64,000 bases of DNA from an uncultured Methylomirabilota bacterium (lineage in GTDB: Bacteria > Methylomirabilota > Methylomirabilia > Methylomirabilales > 2-02-FULL-66-22): assembly GCA_963705305.1 (NCBI GenBank), contig OY970067.1:1952001-2016000 (forward strand), given 5' to 3'. Shown here in pieces: positions 7,874 through 63,374 of this stretch. The position numbers and the translations under genes are program-made. Below the pieces are notes generated by a model. That model searched no databases. It saw only the letters and a list, made by a program, of their open reading frames with translations, and was not told where the DNA came from. Within the stretch, counting starts at the first letter, position 1. Every line of letters starts with the position of its first letter.

Positions 7874-8620
7874 ATGAACGAGCTGAAGGATCAGGTCGTG
7901 GCCGTGACGGGTTCGGGGAAGGGGCTGGGAAAGGGGATCGCCGAGCGGTGTTATGCCGAAGGGGCCATGGTCGTCACCTGGGATCGGTCCGGCCTGGCGA
8001 AGGGCGTGGCGGATACGCTGGATCCCTCCGGCAAGCGAACGCTCTACGTCCGGGCGGATGTGCGAGAGGAGAACCAAGTGGCGCAGGCCTTCGCCGAGAT
8101 CATGAAGAAGTTCGGGCGGGTGGACGTGCTCGTCAACAACGCTGGCATCTCGCGCCACAAGCCCATCGAAGAGATGAGCGTGGATCTCTTCGAAGAGGTG
8201 ATGAACACGAACACGACGGGCGTCTTTATCTGCTGCAAGGCCGCGACCCCCATCATGAAGAAGCAGGGGCGGGGCAAGATCGTCAACATCGCGTCCCTGG
8301 GAGGGCGCACCGGCCGGCCCGGCGTAGGGGTGAATTACGCGGCCTCCAAGGCCGCCGTGATCGCCATCACACAGACCCTGGCCCGGGAGCTGGGGCCGTC
8401 GGGGATCTACATGAACGCCATCGCCCCCGGTCCGATCCTGACAGAGCAAACCCGCCAATACCCCCCGGAGGTGTTTGCCAAGTGGAATGCCGGCCGGGCA
8501 GTCCAGAAGGACGGCCTGCCCGAGGACGTGGCCGACGCGGTCCTCTTCCTCGCCTCGAATCGGTCGGACTGGGTGACGGGGGTGACGCTGGATCTCAACG
8601 GCGGGATCCTCATCCGGTAG
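7874..8620 (+). CDS. Short-chain dehydrogenase/reductase
   Basis: TGSGKGLG, NNAG, YAASK; AAGGAGG RBS. Confidence 0.93.
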   Translation: MNELKDQVVAVTGSGKGLGKGIAERCYAEGAMVVTWDRSGLAKGVADTLDPSGKRTLYVRADVREENQVAQAFAEIMKKFGRVDVLVNNAGISRHKPIEEMSVDLFEEVMNTNTTGVFICCKAATPIMKKQGRGKIVNIASLGGRTGRPGVGVNYAASKAAVIAITQTLARELGPSGIYMNAIAPGPILTEQTRQYPPEVFAKWNAGRAVQKDGLPEDVADAVLFLASNRSDWVTGVTLDLNGGILIR

Positions 8621-8695
8621 TCGTGAAATCGTGTGGGGCCGGCGCCGATCCTGTCGGCGGCGCCGGCGCGGCACCCTGCAAGAAAAGGAGGCGCG

Positions 8696-20207: not shown

Positions 20208-20945
20208 ATGCCAATGCTCGAGATTCGCGGCCTCAGCAAGCACTTCTTCCGGTTGCGCGCCGTGCAGGATGTGAGTTTCGGCGTCGAATCCAAGGAACTG
20301 CTGGGCTTGATCGGGCCGAACGGTTCCGGGAAGACGACCGTGTTCAACTGTGTGACCGGGATCCTCCCGGTCACGGGGGGACAGGTGTTGTTCAAGGGCG
20401 AGGACATTACCGGCAGCAACCCCGATGCCATCTATCATCGTGGGGTCGCCCGAACCTTCCAGCTCATCCAGCTCTTTCCGCAAATGACTGTGCTGGACAA
20501 CATGCTCATGGCAGGACAAGAGCGGAAGGGCACGATGCTGCGCCGCCTGCTGAGCCTGGATGAGACGGACGAGCGGGAGCGCGCGCTGAAGCTCTTGGAG
20601 TACCTGGATCTCTTCGCGGCGAAAGACGGCCTGGCAGCCAACCTGTCGTATGGGGAGCAGAAGATCCTGGACTTCGGCATGGCGCTTATGTCCGACCCCG
20701 AGATCGTTCTCCTGGATGAACCCATGGCCGGCGTCAACCCGACTGTCGTTAAACGGCTGGTCGGCTATATCCGAGATCTCAATAAGCGGGGAAACACCTT
20801 CGTGGTCATCGAGCATAACATGCAGGTGGTGATGTCCCTGTGCCAGCGCATCGTAGTCCTGAGCCAGGGGGAGAAGATCGCGGAAGGGACCCCTGAGGAG
20901 ATCCAGAAGAACCCGCTGGTCATGGAAGCCTACTTTGGGAGTTAG
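20208..20945 (+). CDS. livG: ABC ATPase
   Basis: GPNGSGKT, ARTFQ, LSYGEQK, LLDEP, IEHNM. Confidence 0.93.
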   Translation: MPMLEIRGLSKHFFRLRAVQDVSFGVESKELLGLIGPNGSGKTTVFNCVTGILPVTGGQVLFKGEDITGSNPDAIYHRGVARTFQLIQLFPQMTVLDNMLMAGQERKGTMLRRLLSLDETDERERALKLLEYLDLFAAKDGLAANLSYGEQKILDFGMALMSDPEIVLLDEPMAGVNPTVVKRLVGYIRDLNKRGNTFVVIEHNMQVVMSLCQRIVVLSQGEKIAEGTPEEIQKNPLVMEAYFGS

Positions 20946-51903: not shown

Positions 51904-51942
51904 CCGCCCACCGTGGCTCTGCGGCGGACAGGTGATGTCGTG

Positions 51943-53082
51943 ATGGACGAGTCGCACGCCATGGATCGCGAAGGAAAGCCGGTAGCAGCGGCGAGCCCCT
52001 TTGCGCAAGCCGAGGGGGCTGCGGGGGCCACCTGGGGTGTCCGTTTTGGCATGCGCTTGCCCGAAGACTACGGCGACCCGGCCGGGGAGTATGGGGCGGT
52101 CCGGAGCGGCGTGGGCCTGGTGGACCTGTCCTTCCGCGGACTGTTGCAGGTGACGGGCAGCGAACGTCTCCGCTGGCTGAACGGCCAGGTCACCAACGAC
52201 GTGGCCAGGCTGCAAGCCGGTGAAGGCAAGCCGGCCGCCGTCCTGACCGCCAAGGGGCATATCCTGTCCGACCTGGCGGTGTATGGGCTGGCGGATTCGA
52301 TCTGGGTGGATCTGCCCAGGCAGCGTGAAGAGACCGTACGGGCCGCCTTCAATCGCCACATCATCGCCGACGACGTGACCGTCGAGGCGGCCGGCGCCCG
52401 CCTTGCCCACCTCATGCTGGCAGGCCCGGCCGCCGCCGGCCTCATGGCTCAGGCGGCGGGAGAGGCGGTGGCCGATCTTCCCGCCTGGCACCACCGAGAG
52501 GTCCGGCTGGGAGACGTCCCCGGCCGGGTCGCCGCCAGCCGGTGGCTGCAGCTCCCTACGTACGATGTGTGGATACCCGTCGACGCCGCCGGAACGGTCT
52601 GGGAGGCGCTGAGGCGTCTCGATATCGATGCCCGCCCGGTCGGGATGGCGGCCCTGGATGTCCTGCGCCTGGAGGCAGGCTGGCCGTGGTACGGGGTGGA
52701 TTTCGACGAGGGACATCTGCTGATGGAGGCCCTCACGCCGGCCCACGTGAGTTTCACCAAGGGCTGCTACGTCGGGCAAGAGGTCGTCATCCGCGTCGAG
52801 CATCAGGGCCACGTCAACCGGCGGCTGTGCGGCCTGGTCGTGGTGGGGGCGACTGCGCCGCCCTCCGGAGCGGACATCCTGGCGGACGATAAGAAGGTCG
52901 GCAGCGTGACCAGCGCCGGCCCGTCGCCCGCCCTGGGCCGGGTGATCGCCCTGGGGTTCATCCGGCGCGAATGCTCGGAGGCGGGGACGCGCCTCCGCAT
53001 CCGGGCCGGAGAGGAAGCTCTGGAGGCGGAGGTCGTTGCCCTGCCGTTCGTCCCCGCACCGGCCTGGCGGCCGGAGAGTTGA
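51943..53082 (+). CDS. ygfZ: Folate-binding YgfZ/GcvT-like protein
   Basis: DLSFRG, WLNGQVTNDV, RLEAG, SFTKGCYVGQEV (YgfZ signature). Confidence 0.85.
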   Translation: MDESHAMDREGKPVAAASPFAQAEGAAGATWGVRFGMRLPEDYGDPAGEYGAVRSGVGLVDLSFRGLLQVTGSERLRWLNGQVTNDVARLQAGEGKPAAVLTAKGHILSDLAVYGLADSIWVDLPRQREETVRAAFNRHIIADDVTVEAAGARLAHLMLAGPAAAGLMAQAAGEAVADLPAWHHREVRLGDVPGRVAASRWLQLPTYDVWIPVDAAGTVWEALRRLDIDARPVGMAALDVLRLEAGWPWYGVDFDEGHLLMEALTPAHVSFTKGCYVGQEVVIRVEHQGHVNRRLCGLVVVGATAPPSGADILADDKKVGSVTSAGPSPALGRVIALGFIRRECSEAGTRLRIRAGEEALEAEVVALPFVPAPAWRPES

Positions 53083-53208: not shown

Positions 53209-55065
53209 ATGTCGCGTGAACGACCGGTCAAGAATCGAACCGCCGGACCCACGGAGCGGAGCCTGGCGAGCCCGCCCCCGAACAAGATGACTCGGGCGAT
53301 CGTGGCGCGCCTGCGCGCGCACGGCGAGGCCGTGCGTCGGGCCTGGAAAGCCGAGATGGCTGCCCGCCGCCTGCTGCAGCGGCTCACTCCGGAGGAGGCC
53401 GAGGCGGAGTCCGCCGCGATCTATGACGTGCTGATGGAATGCCTGGAGACCGGCCGGTACCACAGCGCGCAGGCGTACGCCGAAGAAGTGGCCGAGCGGG
53501 ATGTCTTCCGCGGCATCGGGGCCAAGCAGGTTATCGGGCGGCTGCTGGTGTTGCGGGACGTGTGCAGCCGGTTCATCTGCCTGGACTGCGAGCGGCACGG
53601 CGCCGACCAGGCCTGTGCGCTGGATGTCTATGAACCGGTGGCCAACCGGATTCTGACCATCGTGGCCATGGCCTTCGTACAAGAGCGGGAGCGGGCCGTG
53701 GGTCGAGGCCGGGAGCAGCTCGGCGCCCTGGTGGAGGCCGGGCTGGTCCTGGCGGCGGAGCGTTCCCTCACGTCCGTCCTCCAGCGCATCGTCGAGCTGG
53801 CCTGCCGGCTCCTGCATGCCACCTACGGGGCGCTGGGCGTCCTGGACGCGAACGGCCTCCTGGAGCAGTTCGTCTCGACCGGCCTCGATGAGGCGACGCG
53901 GGCGCGCATCGGCCCGCTTCCCACCGGCCAGGGGATCCTGGGCATCGTCGTCCGCGAGGCGCGGCCGCTGCGCCTTCGTGACCTGACGGGGGATCCTCGC
54001 GCCACCGGGTTCCCCCCGCACCATCCTCCCATGCGCTCCTTCCTGGGCGTGCCCATCATGTCCAAAGGCCGGGTCTTCGGGAACCTGTACGTGACGGACA
54101 AGCAGGGCGCGGAAGAATTCACCAAGGAGGACGAGCAGCTGGCGGTGACCCTGGCGGCGCAGGCGGCCATCGCCATCGAGAACGCCAGCCTCTACGACAA
54201 GCTGCGTCGCTCGTACGAGGAGCTGAAACAATCGCAGGACCTCTTGGTGCGTCAGGAGAAGCTGGCGTCCCTGGGTCGGCTGGCGGCGGGCCTGGCCCAC
54301 GAGCTGAACAACCCGCTGTCGTCGGTGGCCGGATTCGCCGAGGCCTTGCAGCGGCGCATGTCCGAGGGCGGAGGGCTCGACGCGTCCGGGTCCGGGGAGT
54401 GCCGGGAATACCTGGACATGATTCAGTCCGAGGTCGCCCGCGCCGCGGGGATCGTCCGGCGGCTCCTCGATTTCGCTCGCCAGCGCGAGCCCAGCTTCGG
54501 CCCCGTGAACCTTCTCCAGGTGGTGCGAGAAGCCGTCTCGTTCGCAGAACGCCAGGCCAGCCTCGCCAACCGGCAGATCCAGGTGGAGTCGTTCCCGGAG
54601 ACCTACGAGGTCCTGGGGGACGACCAGATGCTCCAGCAGGTGGTCCTCAACCTTCTCACCAACGCTCTGGACGCCATCGAGGGCGGGGGAATGATTCAGG
54701 TCAGCGCCCGCCTGGCGCCGGCAGAGCACCCTGGCACCCAGGCAGCTCGGCATGCGGGCGAGAGGTCCTCTCAGGATGCCGGGCCATCGGATCTCCTGAT
54801 TACCGAACCCACAGCCTGGGTGGACTTGGTCGTGTCGGATACCGGCAGCGGGATCGCCCCGGAGAATCTCAACAAGGTCATGGACCCGTTTTTCACCACC
54901 AAGGAAGTTGGGAAAGGGACCGGTCTCGGTCTGGCCATCTGCCAGAGCATCGTGGAGCAACACGGCGGTCGCCTCTCCGTCTGGAGCAAGGGCCTGGGAG
55001 AAGGCACGGCGGTCACCGTCCGACTGCCGCTCGTGTTCTCCGCCGGCCACGGAGGGCAGATGTGA
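53209..55065 (+). CDS. Histidine kinase: RsbR-N/globin-like domain + DosS-like GAF + HisKA + HATPase
   Basis: GAF YGALGV..GFPPHHPPMRSFLGVP..GNLYVT; H-box LAHELNNPL; NLLTNA, DTGSGI, FFTTK, GTGLGL. Confidence 0.92.
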   Translation: MSRERPVKNRTAGPTERSLASPPPNKMTRAIVARLRAHGEAVRRAWKAEMAARRLLQRLTPEEAEAESAAIYDVLMECLETGRYHSAQAYAEEVAERDVFRGIGAKQVIGRLLVLRDVCSRFICLDCERHGADQACALDVYEPVANRILTIVAMAFVQERERAVGRGREQLGALVEAGLVLAAERSLTSVLQRIVELACRLLHATYGALGVLDANGLLEQFVSTGLDEATRARIGPLPTGQGILGIVVREARPLRLRDLTGDPRATGFPPHHPPMRSFLGVPIMSKGRVFGNLYVTDKQGAEEFTKEDEQLAVTLAAQAAIAIENASLYDKLRRSYEELKQSQDLLVRQEKLASLGRLAAGLAHELNNPLSSVAGFAEALQRRMSEGGGLDASGSGECREYLDMIQSEVARAAGIVRRLLDFARQREPSFGPVNLLQVVREAVSFAERQASLANRQIQVESFPETYEVLGDDQMLQQVVLNLLTNALDAIEGGGMIQVSARLAPAEHPGTQAARHAGERSSQDAGPSDLLITEPTAWVDLVVSDTGSGIAPENLNKVMDPFFTTKEVGKGTGLGLAICQSIVEQHGGRLSVWSKGLGEGTAVTVRLPLVFSAGHGGQM

Positions 55066-55066
55066 G

Positions 55067-56449
55067 ATGAATCAAGACCATCCGCAGGGAGAACCCATCC
55101 GGGTGCTGGTCGTGGACGACGAGCGCCCCATCCGCTTCCTTCTGGAGAAGGAGCTCCCGCGAGCCGGCTGCGCCGTCACGGTCGCCGAGAGCGGCGAGGG
55201 AGCTCTGGAGCAGCTCCGCGCCCAGGACTTCAACGTCGTCCTGCTGGATCTGAAGATGCCCGGAATCGGCGGCATGGAGGCGCTCCGCCGGGTGCGGGAG
55301 TCCGGGGTGTCGGCTGAGGTCGTGGTCCTCACCGGGCATCCGGACGTGTCCAGCGCCATCGAGGCGATGAAGCTGGGCGCGTATGACTACCTCACCAAGC
55401 CCTTCAAGCTGGCCGAGGTGGAGGTGGTGCTGCGCCGGGCGGCGGAGCGAAAGCGGCTGCAGAAAGAGAATGCGGCCCTGCGGCAGATGGTGGCCCAGCG
55501 AGAGATTTCGCCCCCCATCCAAGGACGGAGCCCGGCGATCGCCGCGATCCTCGAAATCGTGGAACGGGTTGCACCCACCGACGCCAGCATTCTCATCGAG
55601 GGGGAGAGCGGCACCGGGAAAGGACTGGTGGCGCAGGCCATCCACCGGGGAAGCGCCCGGGCCGGCGGACCGTTTCTCGCCATCAATTGCGGAGGCTTCC
55701 AGGACCCGTTGCTGGAGAGCGAGCTGTTCGGCCACGAAAAGGGCGCGTTCACGGGGGCTTCCAGCGCCAAAGAGGGACTGTTCGAGGTGGCCGATGGTGG
55801 GACGCTGTTCCTGGACGAGGTGGGGGAGATGAGCCCCGCGATGCAGGCCAAGCTGCTCCAGGTCCTGGACTCGCGGCAGCTGCGCCGGGTCGGGGGAACG
55901 CGGCTGCATCGCGTCGATGTTCGCATCGTGGCGGCGACGAACAAGACGCTGGCGGAGGAGGTCCGTGAAGGCCGCTTTCGGGAGGACCTGTATTATCGGT
56001 TGAACGTTGTCAACCTCGTCGTGCCGCCGTTGCGTGAGCGGAAAGAAGATATCCCCCTGCTGGCGGAGCACTTCCTGGCCGCCATGCAGGTCAGCGGTCG
56101 GAAAGCCAAGGGGGTCTCCCCCGAGGCCATGCGGTGCCTGGCGGATTACAGCTGGCCGGGAAACGTCCGCGAACTGGCGAACATGATCGAGCGGCTGATC
56201 ATCCTGACCCGCGGCCAGGTCATCGAGGTCAAGGACCTCCCGCCAACCCTGCGGGGAGGCGCGTCGGCGGCGCCGGCCGCCACCGCCATGCCGGTCTCGC
56301 TCTCGGATATGGAACGGCTGCACATCGCCAGGATCCTGGCGGAGACGGGCGGGAAGAAGATGCGGGCCGCTCGACTGCTCGGCATCGACCTCAAGACCCT
56401 CAATAAGAAGATCAAAGACTACGGGATCCCCCTTCCACCGGCCTCCTAA
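55067..56449 (+). CDS. NtrC-family sigma54-dependent response regulator
   Basis: VVDDE, LLDLKMP, TKP; GESGTGK, ESELFGHEKGAFTGA, FLDEVG, FREDLYYRLN, WPGNVREL; C-terminal HTH. Confidence 0.95.
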   Translation: MNQDHPQGEPIRVLVVDDERPIRFLLEKELPRAGCAVTVAESGEGALEQLRAQDFNVVLLDLKMPGIGGMEALRRVRESGVSAEVVVLTGHPDVSSAIEAMKLGAYDYLTKPFKLAEVEVVLRRAAERKRLQKENAALRQMVAQREISPPIQGRSPAIAAILEIVERVAPTDASILIEGESGTGKGLVAQAIHRGSARAGGPFLAINCGGFQDPLLESELFGHEKGAFTGASSAKEGLFEVADGGTLFLDEVGEMSPAMQAKLLQVLDSRQLRRVGGTRLHRVDVRIVAATNKTLAEEVREGRFREDLYYRLNVVNLVVPPLRERKEDIPLLAEHFLAAMQVSGRKAKGVSPEAMRCLADYSWPGNVRELANMIERLIILTRGQVIEVKDLPPTLRGGASAAPAATAMPVSLSDMERLHIARILAETGGKKMRAARLLGIDLKTLNKKIKDYGIPLPPAS

Positions 56450-56625
56450 CAGACTGCTGAAAAAGGCCCATCTGCCGGGTACCCATCTGATGGGTGCCCA
56501 GCCTTCGGACGGGTGCCCCCGCGCTCCCGCGGCGCTGCGACGTACGTGTAAGTACGTCTCGCGCGCCGCCTTGCATCCGGGCCTTTTTCAGCAGCCTGAG
56601 CGAAAACGAGTTTTTCAGCACCCTG
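56450..56625. mobile_element. MITE-like palindromic element with IS5-like ends
   Basis: Left CAGACTGCTGAAAAA 56450; right TTTTTCAGCAGCCTG 56584-56598 and TTTTTCAGCACCCTG 56611-56625; flanked by CTAA/CTAC; nested internal hairpins. Confidence 0.6.
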
Positions 56626-56663
56626 CTACGCTCTTTGATTCGTCAATTCGATCTGGATGGCTT

Positions 56664-56699
56664 CCCCGGAGAAACTCCCGCCCCCCCGGAGAAACTCCC
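56664..56699. promoter_or_regulatory. Tandem enhancer-like sites (putative UAS)
   Basis: CCCCGGAGAAACTCCC at 56664 and 56684; each contains the palindrome GGAG-N3-CTCC. Confidence 0.7.
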
Positions 56700-56760
56700 A
56701 CCGTTCTTGGATGCTCAAGATTGAATAATTTCTGTGGTTAAGTACTTACTACATAAATTA

Positions 56761-56773
56761 TTTCAATTAGTTA
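56761..56773 (+). promoter_or_regulatory. IHF-like site
   Basis: TTTCAA-TTAG-TTA, one mismatch to WATCAA-N4-TTR, inside an AT-rich tract between the UAS and the promoter. Confidence 0.5.
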
Positions 56774-56801
56774 TATACATTTGAGAGAATGACGATAGAA
56801 T

Positions 56802-56817
56802 TGGTACGGGTGTTGCT
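56802..56817 (+). promoter_or_regulatory. Sigma54 (-24/-12) promoter
   Basis: TGGTACG-GGTG-TTGCT, GG-N10-GC, one mismatch to TGGCACG-N4-TTGCW. Confidence 0.85.
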
Positions 56818-56854
56818 TCTCTCTAGAAATGGAAGCTAACCGCGCAGAGAGGAA

Positions 56855-57307
56855 ATGAAGGATATGCAGATCGTTGTCTGCTCCGGAAATCCGAGGGTCA
56901 TTGCGATCATCGAAGGACTGTTCGGAATCGAGGATCGGATCACGGTCTGTGAGTCCGGCCTGGAATTGCTGGGGACGGTCCGCGCAGTATCCTCCGACGT
57001 GGTGATCCTGGATCTGGAGACGCCGGGGCTGAACAGCCTCTTCTTGGTCTCCGCCATTCAGGAGTTGGCTCCACAGGTACCGATTGTGGCCGTCTCCATG
57101 CAGGCGCCGGCCGACCTTCGGGCCCTGACGCAAAAGGGGGTCACCTACGCCGCACTCGCCCCAGACGCCGACGATGGGGCGTCGGCGGCGCTGGCCGAGC
57201 TGGTGCGGGCCGCGTGCCCTACGCACGCCGTGGAGGCCGGATCAGGATCGAGCCGACGAATCCGACCGGTGCGGAGCGTCGTGGGCGCCGGGCGTCATAT
57301 CGACTGA
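56855..57307 (+). CDS. Atypical stand-alone receiver (REC) domain protein
   Basis: ESGLELL..DVVILDLETPGLN..VPIVAVS; acidic pair and conserved KP absent. Confidence 0.75.
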   Translation: MKDMQIVVCSGNPRVIAIIEGLFGIEDRITVCESGLELLGTVRAVSSDVVILDLETPGLNSLFLVSAIQELAPQVPIVAVSMQAPADLRALTQKGVTYAALAPDADDGASAALAELVRAACPTHAVEAGSGSSRRIRPVRSVVGAGRHID

Positions 57308-57325
57308 GCACGCAAGGGAGAGACT

Positions 57326-58783
<1,458 letters not shown>

Positions 58784-58817
58784 TCCTCTTCTGTGTTCGT
58801 CTGACGAAAGGTGAGCC

Positions 58818-59588
58818 ATGCTAGAGATCAAGAACCTGCACGCAAAGGTGAACGGCCGGGAGATCCTCAAAGGGGTGAGCCTTACGATCAAGGCCGGCGA
58901 GGTCCACTCCATCATGGGGCCGAACGGCTCGGGAAAGAGCACCCTGGCCCAGGTCCTGGCCGGACGCGAGATCTACGAGGTGACCGAAGGGGAGGTGCTC
59001 TACCAGGGGAGGAGCCTCTTGGACATGGCGCCGGAGGAGCGGGCCTGCGAGGGGCTCTTCATGGCCTTCCAGTATCCGGTGGAGATCCCGGGGGTCAACA
59101 ACACCTACTTCCTGAAGGCCGCGCTCAACGCCGCCCGGAAGTACCGCGGCCAGGACGAGCTGGACGCCATGGACTTCCTGGCGCTGGTCAAGGACAAGAT
59201 GAAGCTCTTGGAGATGGACGACCGGCTGCTGAACCGGGCGGTCAACGAAGGCTTCTCGGGCGGGGAGAAGAAGCGGAACGAGATCTTCCAGATGGCCGTC
59301 CTCCAGCCCAAGCTGGCCATCCTGGACGAGACCGACTCGGGACTGGATATCGACGCCTTGCGGATCGTGGCCAGCGGGGTCAATTTCCTGCGGGATCCTC
59401 AGCGGGCCATCCTGGTCGTGACCCACTACCAGCGGCTGCTCAACTACATCGTCCCGGACTTCGTGCATGTCCTGGTGGACGGGCGGATCGTCAAGTCCGG
59501 AGACAAGGGGCTGGCCCTGGAGCTGGAAGAGAAGGGCTACGCCTGGGTGGAGCAGGAGGCCCGGACCGCCGTGCTGGCCAACGCGTAA
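58818..59588 (+). CDS. sufC: Fe-S cluster assembly ATPase SufC
   Basis: GPNGSGKST, AFQYPVEIPGV, GFSGGEKKRNE, DETDSGLDIDAL. Confidence 0.97.
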   Translation: MLEIKNLHAKVNGREILKGVSLTIKAGEVHSIMGPNGSGKSTLAQVLAGREIYEVTEGEVLYQGRSLLDMAPEERACEGLFMAFQYPVEIPGVNNTYFLKAALNAARKYRGQDELDAMDFLALVKDKMKLLEMDDRLLNRAVNEGFSGGEKKRNEIFQMAVLQPKLAILDETDSGLDIDALRIVASGVNFLRDPQRAILVVTHYQRLLNYIVPDFVHVLVDGRIVKSGDKGLALELEEKGYAWVEQEARTAVLANA

Positions 59589-59607
59589 CCGAAAGGACAC
59601 AGGGGTC

Positions 59608-60969
59608 ATGGCAGCCACACTCGCCCGCAAAGGGCAGACTGATATCTCGCGGTATGTGGAGAGCTTCGCGCGGTTCGAGGAGCGCATGACGGGGGACAGC
59701 CAGGCATGGCTGAAGCCGCTGCGGCGCGCCGGACTGGACCGCTTCACCGTGCTGGGATTCCCCACGGCGCGGGACGAAGACTGGCGCTTCACCAATCTGA
59801 CGCCGCTCATCCAGACGGCCTTCCGGCCGGCCTGGGACCGGCGCAGCGTTCCCGCGGCGGAGGCCCTCGCCCGCTTCGCGATTCCCGGCCTCACCGGCTG
59901 CCGACTGGTCTTCGTGGACGGCCGGTATGCGCCGTCCCTCTCGTCCCTGGCCGCCATCCCCCCGGGAGTGCAGATCGGCAGCTTGGCGGACGCGCCGGCC
60001 GGAGACGTCCGGGAGGCGATCCGGTTCCATCTGGGGCAGTATGTGGACGCGCACGGCGACCCCTTCTCCGCCCTGAACTCCGCCTTTCTGGAAGACGGGG
60101 CGCTCGTGCTCGTTCCCCGCGGCGTGGTGGTGTCCGAGCCGATTCACCTGCTCTACGTCTCCACGGCGGGGCCCGAGCCCACGATCACCCATCCCCGCAC
60201 CCTGGTCGTGTCGGGCGAGAACTGCCAGGCCACCATCCTGGAGGACTTCGTCTCGCTGGGCGAGGGGGTACACTTCTCGAACGCGGTCTCCGAGGTGGTG
60301 GCAGGGGACCACAGCGTGCTGGCTCATTATTTCATCCAGCGGGAGAATCCCCGCGCGTTCCACATCTCCACCCTGCGGGTCCAGCAGGAGGGGAGCAGCA
60401 GCGTCACCACCCACTCGGTCCTGCTGGGCGGGGCCCTCACGCGGCGCAACGTGCATCCGGTCCTGGCCGGGGAGGGGGCGGAGTGCCTGATCAACGGCCT
60501 GTTCATGCCGACCGGGCGCCAGCACATGGACAACTACATGAAGGTGGAGCACACCAAGCCGCACTGCTCCAGCCGGCAGTTCTACAAGGGCATCCTGGAC
60601 GGTCAGGCCCGAGGGGTCTTCCACGGCCGGATTATCGTGCACAAGGACGCCCAGAAGACGGATGCCAAGCAGACCAACATGAATCTGCTCCTGTCGGAGG
60701 ATGCCCAGATCGATACCAAGCCCCAGCTGGAAATCTACGCCGACGACGTGAAGTGCACTCATGGCGCGACGATCGGCCAGATAGACGACGACGCAATCTT
60801 CTACCTGCGTTCCCGCGGTATCGGCGAGGCTGCGGCCCGCGCGCTGCTGCTGTTTGCCTTCGCCGGGGAGAGCCTCCAGCGCATGACGGTCGAGCCGATC
60901 CGCCGCCACCTGGAGATGCTGGTCAAGCAGTGGATGTCCCACGGCGATCTCGTGGAGGGAGTGCGATGA
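59608..60969 (+). CDS. sufD: Fe-S cluster assembly protein SufD
   Basis: EDWRFT, AQKTDA, KPQLEIYADDVKCTHGATIG, FYLRSRGI. Confidence 0.96.
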   Translation: MAATLARKGQTDISRYVESFARFEERMTGDSQAWLKPLRRAGLDRFTVLGFPTARDEDWRFTNLTPLIQTAFRPAWDRRSVPAAEALARFAIPGLTGCRLVFVDGRYAPSLSSLAAIPPGVQIGSLADAPAGDVREAIRFHLGQYVDAHGDPFSALNSAFLEDGALVLVPRGVVVSEPIHLLYVSTAGPEPTITHPRTLVVSGENCQATILEDFVSLGEGVHFSNAVSEVVAGDHSVLAHYFIQRENPRAFHISTLRVQQEGSSSVTTHSVLLGGALTRRNVHPVLAGEGAECLINGLFMPTGRQHMDNYMKVEHTKPHCSSRQFYKGILDGQARGVFHGRIIVHKDAQKTDAKQTNMNLLLSEDAQIDTKPQLEIYADDVKCTHGATIGQIDDDAIFYLRSRGIGEAAARALLLFAFAGESLQRMTVEPIRRHLEMLVKQWMSHGDLVEGVR

Positions 60970-62237
60970 GCAACGCGGCGCAGCGGGTGACCGAGGAGCC
61001 CTGCCAGGACTGCCTGGTGGGATTCGGCAACGACAAGATCCGTCAGGATTTCCCCACGCTCCAGGAACAGGTTCACGGGAAGCGGCTGGTCTATCTCGAC
61101 AACGCCGCCACCACCCACAAGCCGCAAGCGGTGATCGACCGGATTGTCCGCTACTACGTGGCGGAAAACTCCAACGTGCATCGCGGGGTCCACTTCCTGA
61201 GCCAGGTGGCCACCCAGGCCTACGAGAGTGCGCGCAGCCGTGTCCGGGAATTCCTGAATGCGGCCCACGACCGGGAGATCATCTACACGCGGGGCACCAC
61301 AGAGAGCATCAACCTGGTGGCCGCCACCTACGGCCGGAGCCGCGTCAAGGCGGGGGACGAGATCATCATCTCGGCCATGGAGCACCACTCCAACATCGTG
61401 CCCTGGCAGATGCTGTGCGAAGAGAAGGGGGCCAAGCTGCGGGTCATTCCCATGAACGATGCCGGGGAGCTCCTCCTGGAAGAGTACGAGCGGCTCCTGA
61501 ACGACCGGACCAGGCTGGTCGCGGTCGCCTATGTCTCCAACACCCTGGGCACGGTGAATCCCGTCCAGGAGATCATCGCCCTGGCGCACCATCGCGGCGT
61601 GCCGGTGCTGGTGGACGGGGCGCAGGCGACGCCCCACATGCCGGTGGACGTCCGGGACCTGGACTGCGATTTTTACGCCTTTTCCGCCCACAAGCTCTTC
61701 GGTCCCACCGGATTCGGGATCCTGTACGGCAAGGCGGAGCTCCTGGAGGCCATGCCCCCGTACCAGGGGGGCGGGGACATGATCAGCGCCGTCACCTTTG
61801 AGAAGACGCTGTTCAACTCCCTCCCGTACAAGTTTGAAGCCGGCACGCCCCACATCGAGGGGGCCATCGGATTGGGGGCGGCCATCGAGTACGTCCAGCG
61901 GATCGGCATGCATCAGATCGCGGCCTACGAGGCCGACCTGCTGGCCTACGGGACCGAGTTGCTATCCGCGATCCCCGGTCTGCGGATCATCGGCACCGCC
62001 GCGCGCAAGGCGGGGGTGCTCTCATTCGTGCTGGACGGCATCCACGCCCATGACGTGGGCACAATCCTGGATCTGGAGGGCGTGGCGGTCCGGGCCGGGC
62101 ACCACTGCGCCATGCCGGTCATGAAGCGCTTCGGGGTTCCCGCCACGGCCCGGGCGTCGCTGGCGTTCTACAACACCCGCGAGGATCTCGAGGCCCTGGC
62201 CAAGGCGATCCACAAGGCGCGCGAGGTATTCGCCTGA
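60966..62237 (+). CDS. sufS: Cysteine desulfurase SufS
   Basis: YLDNAATT, EHHSNIVPW, DGAQ, SAHK, RAGHHCA. Confidence 0.96.
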   Translation: MSNAAQRVTEEPCQDCLVGFGNDKIRQDFPTLQEQVHGKRLVYLDNAATTHKPQAVIDRIVRYYVAENSNVHRGVHFLSQVATQAYESARSRVREFLNAAHDREIIYTRGTTESINLVAATYGRSRVKAGDEIIISAMEHHSNIVPWQMLCEEKGAKLRVIPMNDAGELLLEEYERLLNDRTRLVAVAYVSNTLGTVNPVQEIIALAHHRGVPVLVDGAQATPHMPVDVRDLDCDFYAFSAHKLFGPTGFGILYGKAELLEAMPPYQGGGDMISAVTFEKTLFNSLPYKFEAGTPHIEGAIGLGAAIEYVQRIGMHQIAAYEADLLAYGTELLSAIPGLRIIGTAARKAGVLSFVLDGIHAHDVGTILDLEGVAVRAGHHCAMPVMKRFGVPATARASLAFYNTREDLEALAKAIHKAREVFA

Positions 62238-62686
62238 TGTCGGATCTGCGGGAGCTGTACCAGCAAGTCATCCTGGATCATTACAAGAAGCCGCGGAACT
62301 TCCAGAAGCTGGCGGATGCCAATCGGCACGCGGAGGGCCACAATCCCCTCTGCGGGGACGAGATCACCGTCTACCTCCACATGGACGGGGAGGTGATCAA
62401 GGACATCAGCTTCACGGGCGCCGGCTGCGCCATCTCCCAGTCCGCCGCCTCGCTGATGACCACGGTGCTGAAGGGCAAGACGCGGGCCGAGGCCGAGGCG
62501 CTGTTCAAGAAGTTCCACGATATGGTGACCGGGGAGGGGGGAGCCCCGGATCCAATGGAGCTGGGCAAGCTGGCGGTGTTCTGCGGGGTGAGCGAGTTCC
62601 CGGTGCGGGTCAAGTGCGCCAGCTTGCCCTGGCACACCCTGCACGCAGCCTTGGCAGGCGCGGAGGAGGCCGTTTCCACGGAGTGA
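62237..62686 (+). CDS. sufU: SUF system NifU-family protein
   Basis: LYQQVILDHYKKPRN, NPLCGDE, GCAISQS, RVKCASL. Confidence 0.95.
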   Translation: MSDLRELYQQVILDHYKKPRNFQKLADANRHAEGHNPLCGDEITVYLHMDGEVIKDISFTGAGCAISQSAASLMTTVLKGKTRAEAEALFKKFHDMVTGEGGAPDPMELGKLAVFCGVSEFPVRVKCASLPWHTLHAALAGAEEAVSTE

Positions 62687-62775
62687 GGGGGAGCGCGCCG
62701 CGACCACCGGAGGCGGCCGGCGCTCGGACGACGCGGTCAGGAAGGCTCATCCAGGTGGGGACGGACGAGAGAGGC

Positions 62776-63102
62776 ATGGGGAGCATCGCTGTGGACCCAC
62801 GAGCAATCGAGTCGCAGGTTGTCGATGCGTTGCGGACGTGCTACGACCCGGAGATCCCGGTGGACATCTACGAGCTGGGGCTCGTCTATGGCGTTACGGC
62901 GAGCCCGACGGGAGCGGTGGAGATCAGAATGACGCTCACATCGCCCGCCTGCCCGGTGGCGGGGGAGCTTCCCGTGGAAGTGGAGCGAAAGGTGCGGGCC
63001 ATTCCCGGCGTGACCGACGCCAAGGTCGAGATCGTCTTCGATCCCCCCTGGGACCCCTCCCGCATGTCCGAGGCTGCCCGCCTGCAGCTGGGAGTGCTAT
63101 GA
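62776..63102 (+). CDS. sufT: DUF59 / SufT Fe-S maturation protein
   Basis: YDPEIPVDIYELGLVY, MTLTSPACP, PPW..RMSEAARL. Confidence 0.92.
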   Translation: MGSIAVDPRAIESQVVDALRTCYDPEIPVDIYELGLVYGVTASPTGAVEIRMTLTSPACPVAGELPVEVERKVRAIPGVTDAKVEIVFDPPWDPSRMSEAARLQLGVL

Positions 63103-63374
63103 GGCGCGGTGCCGCAGGCGCGATGAAGCCGCACCCCAGGCTGTTGGCCGTCGTGAACACGTCCTGCACGGGGTGCGACGTCTGTCTGGATTTCTGTCCG
63201 GTTGACTGCATCGATCACGAGCCGCCGGCACAGGCCGCGGCGGCGCCGGCTCCTCCCGTCCACATCCGGGATGAGGAGTGCATCGGCTGCCAGGTGTGTG
63301 CCAAGGTGTGCGAGCACCTCGCCCTAAACGCTATCCGGATGGTGCCGGTCGCTGCCGGACAGCCAAACGGCTAG
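63099..63374 (+). CDS. 2x[4Fe-4S] ferredoxin
   Basis: CTGCDVCLDFCPVDCI and CIGCQVCAKVC; start 63099 or 63123. Confidence 0.88.
   Translation: MRRGAAGAMKPHPRLLAVVNTSCTGCDVCLDFCPVDCIDHEPPAQAAAAPAPPVHIRDEECIGCQVCAKVCEHLALNAIRMVPVAAGQPNG

Follow-up and report, generated by a model that had tools for sequence, protein, structure and literature searches.

A suf operon of Methylomirabilales with a conserved sigma-54-type promoter and an adjoining DosT-like kinase and NtrC-type activator

The suf locus and its promoter region

We analysed a suf operon, dedicated to iron-sulphur (Fe-S) cluster assembly, in a 64-kb stretch of DNA (the window, numbered from its first letter) from an uncultured bacterium of the phylum Methylomirabilota, order Methylomirabilales, whose genome is a single contig of 5.65 Mb with 66% GC. 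An original prediction, drawn from the letters of this DNA, had proposed that an O2-, NO- or redox-sensing two-component system encoded next to the operon activates Fe-S biogenesis through sigma-54. The genes follow one another on one strand (Table 1): a sensor histidine kinase, an NtrC-type activator that starts two bases past the kinase end, 405 nt of intergenic DNA, an atypical single-domain receiver, and then sufB, sufC, sufD, sufS, sufU, a sufT-like gene and a ferredoxin gene (fdx). The SUF assignment comes from the sufB/sufC/sufD scaffold genes together with sufS and sufU (PF01458 twice, ABC_tran, Aminotran_5 and NifU_N), and the SufT-like protein scores 142.5 bits with NCBIfam TIGR02945, for which the cut-off is 143.4. 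Stop and start codons overlap at three junctions (sufD/sufS, sufS/sufU and sufT/fdx). SufB and SufD of this genome were found in this operon only. In agreement with the original prediction, neither an Rrf2/IscR nor a SufR gene heads the operon, and Pfam profiles detected no Rrf2 or SufR gene anywhere at the locus (49.8-64 kb of the window).

The region between the activator and receiver genes has the layout expected of an enhancer-dependent promoter. The palindromic sequence CCCCGGAGAAACTCCC, said in the original prediction to occur as two identical sites 20 bp apart, is present exactly twice in the window, at 56664 and 56684, against 0.09 occurrences expected from shuffled sequence. The site cores, GGAGAAACTCC at 56668-56678 and 56688-56698, are 20 bp apart from centre to centre and lie 134 and 114 nt 5' of the -24 TGG, within the usual range of ~80-150 bp. 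The predicted near-consensus promoter was likewise recovered: the -24/-12 element reads TGGTAC-N5-TTGCT, with the spacing of the consensus TGGCAC-N5-TTGCW, and is one of only two matches to TGGYAY-N5-TTGCW in the window (0.16 expected). The other match, at 20415-20430 on the minus strand, runs antisense inside the open reading frame (ORF) of an ABC-transporter ATPase (20208-20945, plus strand) and was taken as probable chance. Sites and promoter are separated by an AT-rich tract (29% GC at 56700-56799 versus 55-77% in the flanking DNA), which contains an IHF-like site at 56761-56773 (TTTCAATTAGTTA, one mismatch to WATCAANNNNTTR). A transcription start is predicted near 56828.

The arrangement is unique in the genome. 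Ten exact copies of the 11-mer GGAGAAACTCC and six tandem pairs (up to two mismatches per site) occur in the 5.65 Mb; of these pairs, only that at suf has a sigma-54 motif within 400 nt. The other five pairs, considered as further targets, were rejected, as none has such a motif within that distance; the four that were read look coding. The genome also encodes RpoN (PF04552, 208 bits, in a 483-aa open frame) and has four genes of the HU/IHF family.

Table 1. Features of the suf locus. Positions are those of the window; aa, amino acids; pLDDT, predicted local distance difference test score.
Feature	Positions	Strand	Basis and remarks
Sensor histidine kinase, 618 aa	53209..55065	+	Pfam GAF, HisKA, HATPase_c; PDB sequence search
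N-terminal all-helical sensor domain, predicted globin fold	53272..53700	+	AlphaFold pLDDT 93.5; structure alignment
GAF domain, homologous to DosT/DevS GAF-A haem domain	53758..54180	+	2vzw, E 2.9e-40, ungapped
NtrC-type enhancer-binding protein, 460 aa	55067..56449	+	Pfam Response_reg, Sigma54_activat, AAA_lid_14, HTH_8; translation
Dispersed intergenic repeat copy	56440..56630		blastn against the genome
Tandem upstream activator sites (candidate), 2 x CCCCGGAGAAACTCCC	56664..56699	+	Motif count; conservation in relatives
AT-rich tract, 29% GC	56700..56800	+	GC profile; IHF-like site 56761-56773
Sigma-54-type -24/-12 promoter, TGGTACGGGTGTTGCT	56802..56817	+	Consensus scan; kept in relatives
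Single-domain atypical receiver, 147 aa	56864..57307	+	Pfam, orthologue alignment, structure model; alternative start 56855
sufB	57326..58783	+	Pfam; starts 18 nt past receiver stop
sufC	58818..59588	+	Pfam
sufD	59608..60969	+	Pfam; refined start
sufS, cysteine desulfurase	60966..62237	+	Pfam Aminotran_5, E 4e-151; start overlaps sufD stop (ATGA)
sufU	62237..62686	+	Pfam NifU_N; start overlaps sufS stop
SufT-like/SUF-associated DUF59	62776..63102	+	Pfam FeS_assembly_P; refined start
Small 2x[4Fe-4S] ferredoxin	63099..63374	+	Pfam Fer4 families; start overlaps sufT stop

Conservation of promoter, upstream sites and gene order in relatives

We searched 40 relatives with the receiver protein and took 24 orthologous loci, with up to 8 kb on each side, for comparison with the window (n = 25 loci; the unpublished genome G028 was excluded from this locus comparison). 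All 25 loci have TGGYAY-N5-TTGC upstream of the receiver gene, 26-104 nt ahead of where the receiver match begins; the motif ends in TTGCW in 13 of them and in TTGCC or TTGCG in the others. It also precedes the receiver gene in each of four more distant loci, from two genomes of family f4, one complete 2.75-Mb genome of family f7 and one genome (family f9) of another order. A pair of sites resembling GGAGAAACTCC (up to three mismatches per site), 19-21 bp apart, was found in 22/25 loci, and in 18 of these the promoter-proximal site is 118-125 nt 5' of the -24 TGG; this distance is 114 nt in the window, 96 nt in L024, 110 nt in L035 and 111 nt in L043. Two of the three loci without a pair, L032 and L036, hold just 118 and 103 nt before the contig end, while the third, L034, has one good upstream site and a degenerate second one. 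An RGTTA core recurs 35-45 nt 5' of the -24 element in many relatives. The enhancer-dependent architecture envisaged in the original prediction is thus conserved across an order.

The more distant loci add to this picture. Both f4 genomes have the order kinase, activator, sites, promoter, divergent receiver, apbC and suf. In the f9 genome, G058 (locus L072, G058:C107, ~8479-8640), the -24/-12 element is kept (TGGCATGCTCATTGCT) and the tandem repeat differs, being GGGGACRAAACG twice (GGGGACAAAACG and GGGGACGAAACG); the helix-turn-helix (HTH) of its activator orthologue is altered as well (GIHLKTLNRKLK versus GIDLKTLNKKIK). The two changes may be read as weak co-variation between the repeat and the protein predicted to bind it.

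Position of the kinase-activator pair is more variable than that of the cis elements. Of the 24 loci from relatives, 11 have an ntrC gene 0.25-6.1 kb upstream of the receiver gene and on its strand, eight have none over at least 4.8 kb of upstream DNA, and five have too little upstream DNA to tell. The pair stands directly upstream in three families (f1, f4 and f5). In the f7 genomes, which are Candidatus Methylomirabilis-like, all five searched have on another contig a full-length orthologue of the kinase (56-61% identity) followed by the activator (71-77%), and their receiver-apbC-suf operon retains both sites and promoter. The conservation check suggested with the original prediction accordingly came out in its favour, the pair being kept either beside the operon or elsewhere in the genome. 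The sites stay beside the promoter wherever other DNA intervenes and, judged from these alignments, the upstream sites travel with the suf promoter and not with ntrC. The activator is 65-77% identical wherever the sites are conserved, and kinase orthologues in the relatives are 55-68% identical.

Linkage of the receiver gene to suf is retained in every locus with sufficient sequence. A sufB gene lies downstream on the same strand in 20/24 relatives' loci, the other four being cut by contig ends (one of these shows ndh-apbC-moaA up to its end), and in 4/4 of the more distant loci. In many relatives 1.3-3.9 kb of same-strand genes separate receiver gene and sufB, and these inserts encode an Mrp/ApbC carrier (ParA, E 1.5e-99, with FeS_assembly_P), an NDH-2-like protein and MoaA. 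Loci of f7 have in addition a Cys-rich ORF of ~150 aa between the receiver gene and apbC (L038 5262-5738; L040 8453-8893), whose product has a four-Cys ribbon-like motif and, as its only Pfam match, a weak one to RNHCP (E 0.0036). No Rrf2 gene linked to suf was seen at the loci examined, where the query proteins were tested and the inserts identified were apbC, ndh and moaA.

The kinase, the activator and the atypical receiver

The kinase consists of a probable RsbR-like globin domain, a single DosT-like GAF domain (residues 184-324), HisKA and HATPase; the best PDB match of its core is ZraS (9jfj). Its GAF domain, which aligns without gaps to DosT GAF-A and, in a PDB sequence search, to DevS GAF-A (E ~1e-38), is by sequence a close relative of the DosT/DevS haem GAF. 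It keeps, as the original prediction had stated from the DosS/DosT motifs, both the His (HHPPM, second His) and the Tyr (GNLY); these align with DosT His147 and Tyr169, described as proximal ligand and distal residue, respectively, in the review PMC4082495. By the numbering given there, 7 of the 11 haem-contact residues listed are identical in this GAF domain, and the position of DosT Gly85 and DosS Glu87 is a Gly (PMC4082495). Thirteen of 14 orthologues carry the GAF domain, with the His invariant (13/13) and the Tyr kept in 12/13 (one Phe).

No Pfam family was found at E<=0.01 in the first 184 residues of the kinase. The globin-fold domain modelled there has no sequence-family match, and structure comparison (VIA-align) related it best to the RsbR-type sensor domains of stressosomes, 3zta (Z 15.4, root-mean-square deviation 1.9 A over 125 residues) and RsbR 2bnl (Z 14.5), with the haem globin-coupled sensor DosC close behind (Z 13.5), all of these scores to be read against the high background Z that helical folds give in this comparison. 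Foldseek also placed 2bnl on top, as a weak match (E 0.034). Across 14 orthologues the domain has one invariant Cys (ECLETG) and no invariant His. A C-x4-C-x2-C-x8-C motif in the globin-fold domain (53563-53616, residues ~119-136) recurs in full in L035, with three of its four Cys in L031, and is absent in the other 11 orthologues. As a general Fe-S sensing site of the kinase it was rejected for want of conservation; it may be a lineage-specific metal or cluster site.

The activator found upstream of the suf genes, as the original prediction had it, combines a canonical receiver, Walker motifs, a GAFTGA loop (PF00158, E 1.2e-69; GHEKGAFTGA in the translation) and a Fis-type HTH. Its best NCBIfam rows are AtoC, NtrC and ZraR, and those of the kinase AtoS and ZraS, all with scores far below the equivalog cut-offs; neither protein is therefore an orthologue of any of these named systems. 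The activator likewise scores 362.7 with NCBIfam nifA, for which the cut-off is 528.85.

The receiver that heads the operon passes the Pfam cut-off barely (31.9 versus 30.2 bits), and orthologue alignment favours its start at 56864 over that at 56855. It is modelled with a (beta-alpha)5 fold (pLDDT 81) and resembles ordinary receivers, from which it departs at the active site. When profiled against the NtrC receiver 1dc7 it lacks the canonical CheY-like set: the first Asp of the acidic pocket is Ser or Thr in 24/24 sequences, the second acidic position is variable and the Lys after strand 5 is missing in 24/24, and the phospho-acceptor Asp, D50, is retained. Invariant in the 24 sequences are C6, C29, D50 and S78, the last residues of strands 1-4. 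The receiver sheet has the strand order 2-1-3-4-5, and C29, C6 and D50 should therefore sit side by side on the active-site face.

This receiver family is small. Among 1.84 billion representative sequences, nine clusters matched at E<=1e-30 and 154 at E<=1e-10, with scores falling sharply to generic receivers, and a protein atlas gave nothing but unnamed clusters and clusters of generic receivers. The second Cys is present in 18/18 and the first in 13/16 of those among 21 representatives that cover the position. Matches at E<=1e-15 were obtained in 36 of 201 genomes sampled from the phylum, with these counts by family: f1 (13/14), f7 (15/18), f5 (2/3, with G028 one of the two), f4 (2/15), f9 (2/126) and f10 (1/16).

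Such a receiver resembles pseudo-receivers of the RitR type in its incomplete phosphorylation pocket, conserved Cys and iron-related setting, RitR being an atypical receiver with Cys-dependent redox sensing in an iron-related context. Unlike RitR, it is a single domain with no DNA-binding output and retains the phospho-acceptor Asp; its Cys, the last residues of strands 1 and 2, are on the active-site face, and the closest homology found is to generic receivers. Its most plausible role would be feedback on the phosphorelay, either by acting as a sink for phosphate or by Cys-based modulation. We consider it unlikely, if attractive, that the receiver is itself a sensor in which the two Cys and D50 form a metal, Fe-S cluster or thiol-redox site that reports Fe-S supply or oxidative damage to the kinase-NtrC pair. 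A Cys-sensing receiver of this kind would close a feedback loop on SUF expression, and we know of no description of a cluster- or thiol-sensing receiver domain, although no search of the literature was aimed at it.

A proposed sigma-54 circuit for SUF expression and its alternatives

We propose, with a probability of about 0.7, that a dedicated kinase-activator-sigma-54 circuit switches on the only full SUF operon of this organism. In such a circuit the soluble kinase would integrate signals through its DosT-like haem GAF domain (O2, NO, CO or redox) and its RsbR-like globin-fold domain, and phosphorylate the adjoining NtrC-type activator. The latter would oligomerise on the two GGAGAAACTCC sites ~115-135 bp 5' of the -24/-12 promoter and, aided by the AT-rich and possibly IHF-bent spacer, drive open-complex formation by sigma-54 RNA polymerase. 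The resulting rpoN-dependent transcript, starting at ~56828, would span the receiver gene, sufBCDSU, sufT and the ferredoxin gene, and the receiver, as its first product, would probably feed back on the kinase-activator pair. Haem-based sensing of O2, NO, CO or redox state is the likeliest input, at roughly even odds. The part of the original prediction that links an O2/NO/redox two-component system to Fe-S biogenesis through sigma-54 thus held as far as it can be computed, with rpoN present in the genome and the GAF domain DosT-like.

Several observations weigh against this proposal. A sigma-54 promoter without basal activity would be odd for a housekeeping pathway, unless another system covers the basal need. 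A sigma-70-like sequence, TATACA-16-TAGAAT (9/12), overlaps the AT-rich tract at 56774-56801, and the scans for sigma-70 promoters and terminators were built on E. coli-type consensus sequences that may be ill suited to this phylum. The genome encodes 28 sigma-54 activators; with sigma-54 use so common, the pairing of this activator with these sites rests on adjacency and co-conservation. The IHF-like site foreseen at 56761 in the original prediction is present in its AT-rich tract, but one-mismatch matches are at chance level in the window (10 found versus 9.5 expected), and by itself the site appears to be a positional hint without significance. Public RNA runs yielded only sufB of other organisms, with nothing over the promoter or the receiver gene: none of the sequencing runs screened shared more than 0.13 of the sampled words, and four soil metatranscriptome contig sets compared at 80% likeness gave diverged sufB and dispersed-repeat matches only. 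In genome G009, finally, the kinase has no GAF domain (L024, G009:C313, 5156-6364, 402 aa), its globin fold being joined directly to HisKA, and the activator, upstream sites, promoter, receiver gene and sufB are all intact; the GAF domain may therefore be dispensable, or the G009 assembly faulty.

Fe-S assembly is required at all times, and the circuit may co-exist with a sigma-70 promoter for basal expression or with trans-acting Rrf2 control. A basal promoter is possible given the sigma-70-like site in the tract and a similarly placed one in four f7 loci, and the genome has, away from this locus, genes for two Rrf2 regulators, beside a ThiS-ThiF gene and a radical-SAM gene. That basal suf expression comes from a sigma-70 promoter in the AT-rich tract, either constitutive or under Rrf2/Fur control, and that sigma-54 only adds a stress boost, nevertheless strikes us as a tentative and somewhat unlikely account: sigma-70-like sites occur upstream of the receiver gene in 7/25 regions only, at scattered positions, many relatives have GC-rich spacers with no such site, and Rrf2 is unlinked to suf at the loci examined. 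Across the 25 loci no conserved sigma-70-like promoter was seen before either the receiver gene or sufB. The latter result bears also on whether the sigma-54 promoter might serve the receiver gene alone, with suf under a promoter of its own. For this the inserts of 1.3-3.9 kb (apbC, ndh, moaA and the 150-aa ORF) in many relatives leave room, and a sigma-70-like site lies within 200 nt of sufB in 4/25 loci (sigma-54-like sites, 0/25). We find it improbable, however, given that the gap in the window is just 18 nt long and contains no promoter-like or convincing terminator-like site (terminator-like sites across 53-64 kb are at chance level, 5 found versus 5.3 expected), that the genes inserted in relatives share the strand and have Fe-S links of their own (Mrp/ApbC, MoaA), that no conserved motif precedes sufB in the 25 loci and that the receiver-suf linkage is so uniformly kept.

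More improbable still is that the tandem sites are bound by some other activator or a repressor and that the kinase-NtrC pair controls something else. The number of sigma-54 activators in the genome would allow for it, as would the eight relatives' loci without the pair within at least 4.8 kb, but the pair is directly upstream in f1, f4 and f5, the activator is conserved wherever the sites are, no second target with tandem sites and a sigma-54 motif exists in the genome, and in G058 the HTH changes where the repeat changes. As to the input, the presence of a globin-like sensor domain in the same kinase means that haem may not be the only one. The kinase could respond through that domain or through cysteines, to thiol redox or Fe-S status, with the GAF domain structural and not a haem gas sensor; the likeness of the N-terminal domain to non-haem RsbR sensors (Z 15.4), its invariant Cys and lack of an invariant His, the C-x4-C-x2-C-x8-C motif in the window's kinase and the GAF-less kinase of G009 all point this way. 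Against this, the proximal His of the GAF domain is invariant and the distal Tyr nearly so among orthologues, similarity to DosT GAF-A is high and the Cys motif occurs in just 2-3/14 orthologues, so that we regard a purely non-haem input as rather doubtful.

The proposed kinase-activator-sigma-54 circuit has the build of NtrB-NtrC, AtoS-AtoC and ZraS-ZraR, in which a HisKA/HATPase kinase is followed by a REC-AAA+(GAFTGA)-HTH_8 activator and tandem sites lie ~100-150 bp from a -24/-12 element across an AT-rich spacer; it differs from them in its sensor modules, a globin fold and a haem-type GAF, and in having suf as its target. With DosS(DevS)/DosT-DosR it shares the GAF-A homologue with proximal His, distal Tyr, most haem contacts and Gly at the Gly85 position. 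Unlike DosS and DosT, which have GAF-A and GAF-B, the kinase here has one GAF domain and an extra N-terminal globin-fold domain. The phospho-acceptor domain of DosS is HisKA_3 and its partner DosR is of the LuxR/NarL type, whereas here the core is HisKA (PF00512) and the partner NtrC-type, and the output would be Fe-S assembly as opposed to the dormancy regulon.

In known systems, suf operons are regulated at sigma-70 promoters by the one-component metalloregulators IscR, SufR, Fur, OxyR and NsrR. The operon described here resembles those in its sufBCDSU and accessory genes, and a plausible logic would be the same, Fe-S assembly being raised by oxidative, nitrosative or iron stress; it is unlike them in having no Rrf2 or SufR gene at the locus, an enhancer with a -24/-12 element and, by prediction, two-component sensing. 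The nearest known precedent is NifA, a one-component GAF-AAA+-HTH protein for nitrogenase maturation that drives nifUS with sigma-54. Both cases would have a GAF sensing route and a sigma-54 activator driving Fe-S assembly genes, with a two-component pair and the general SUF machinery on our side of the comparison. A search of literature records returned no description of control of suf by sigma-54 or its activators.

If the proposal is right, a whole order of bacteria active in methane and nitrogen cycling has its only complete SUF operon controlled by a two-component sensor acting at an enhancer-dependent promoter, which would be a distinct way of regulating Fe-S homeostasis. The mycobacterial-type haem GAF would then be a portable sensor module, wired in this case to sigma-54. 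Candidatus Methylomirabilis-like organisms, which belong to this order, are reported to produce O2 intracellularly from NO, and through the circuit cofactor assembly would be tied to O2/NO sensing in bacteria with NO- and O2-centred metabolism. Its compact set of parts (two 11-bp sites, a -24/-12 element, one kinase and one activator) would be testable in a heterologous reporter.

Some further features of the locus and genome were recorded. The dispersed repeat at 56440-56630 (~190 nt, with 60-100 genomic copies and 167 high-scoring segment pairs) is an insertion that separates the ntrC stop from the upstream sites and fills the first half of the gap between ntrC and the receiver gene. Scans of 56200-57000 found no Rfam family or tRNA, and an RNA gene of a known family at 56387-56647 was rejected, the metatranscriptome-contig matches there being explained by this repeat. 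Upstream, gcvT, for the glycine-cleavage T-protein, precedes the kinase gene at 51913-53082, and the same neighbour is found in L024, L031 and L043. Elsewhere in the genome, a minimal ABC ATPase (299 aa) is paired with a short, divergent SufBD-like protein (312 aa; PF01458, E 2.4e-15) at G000:C1 ~2204575-2206309 (L069 3075-4809), and this pair may act as a simple Fe-S scaffold able to cover basal demand. A single open frame at G000:C1 ~1005771-1008029 on the minus strand (L071 532-2790) encodes NifU_N fused to an Mrp/NUBPL-type ATPase; many relatives have instead an Mrp/ApbC gene between the receiver gene and sufB.

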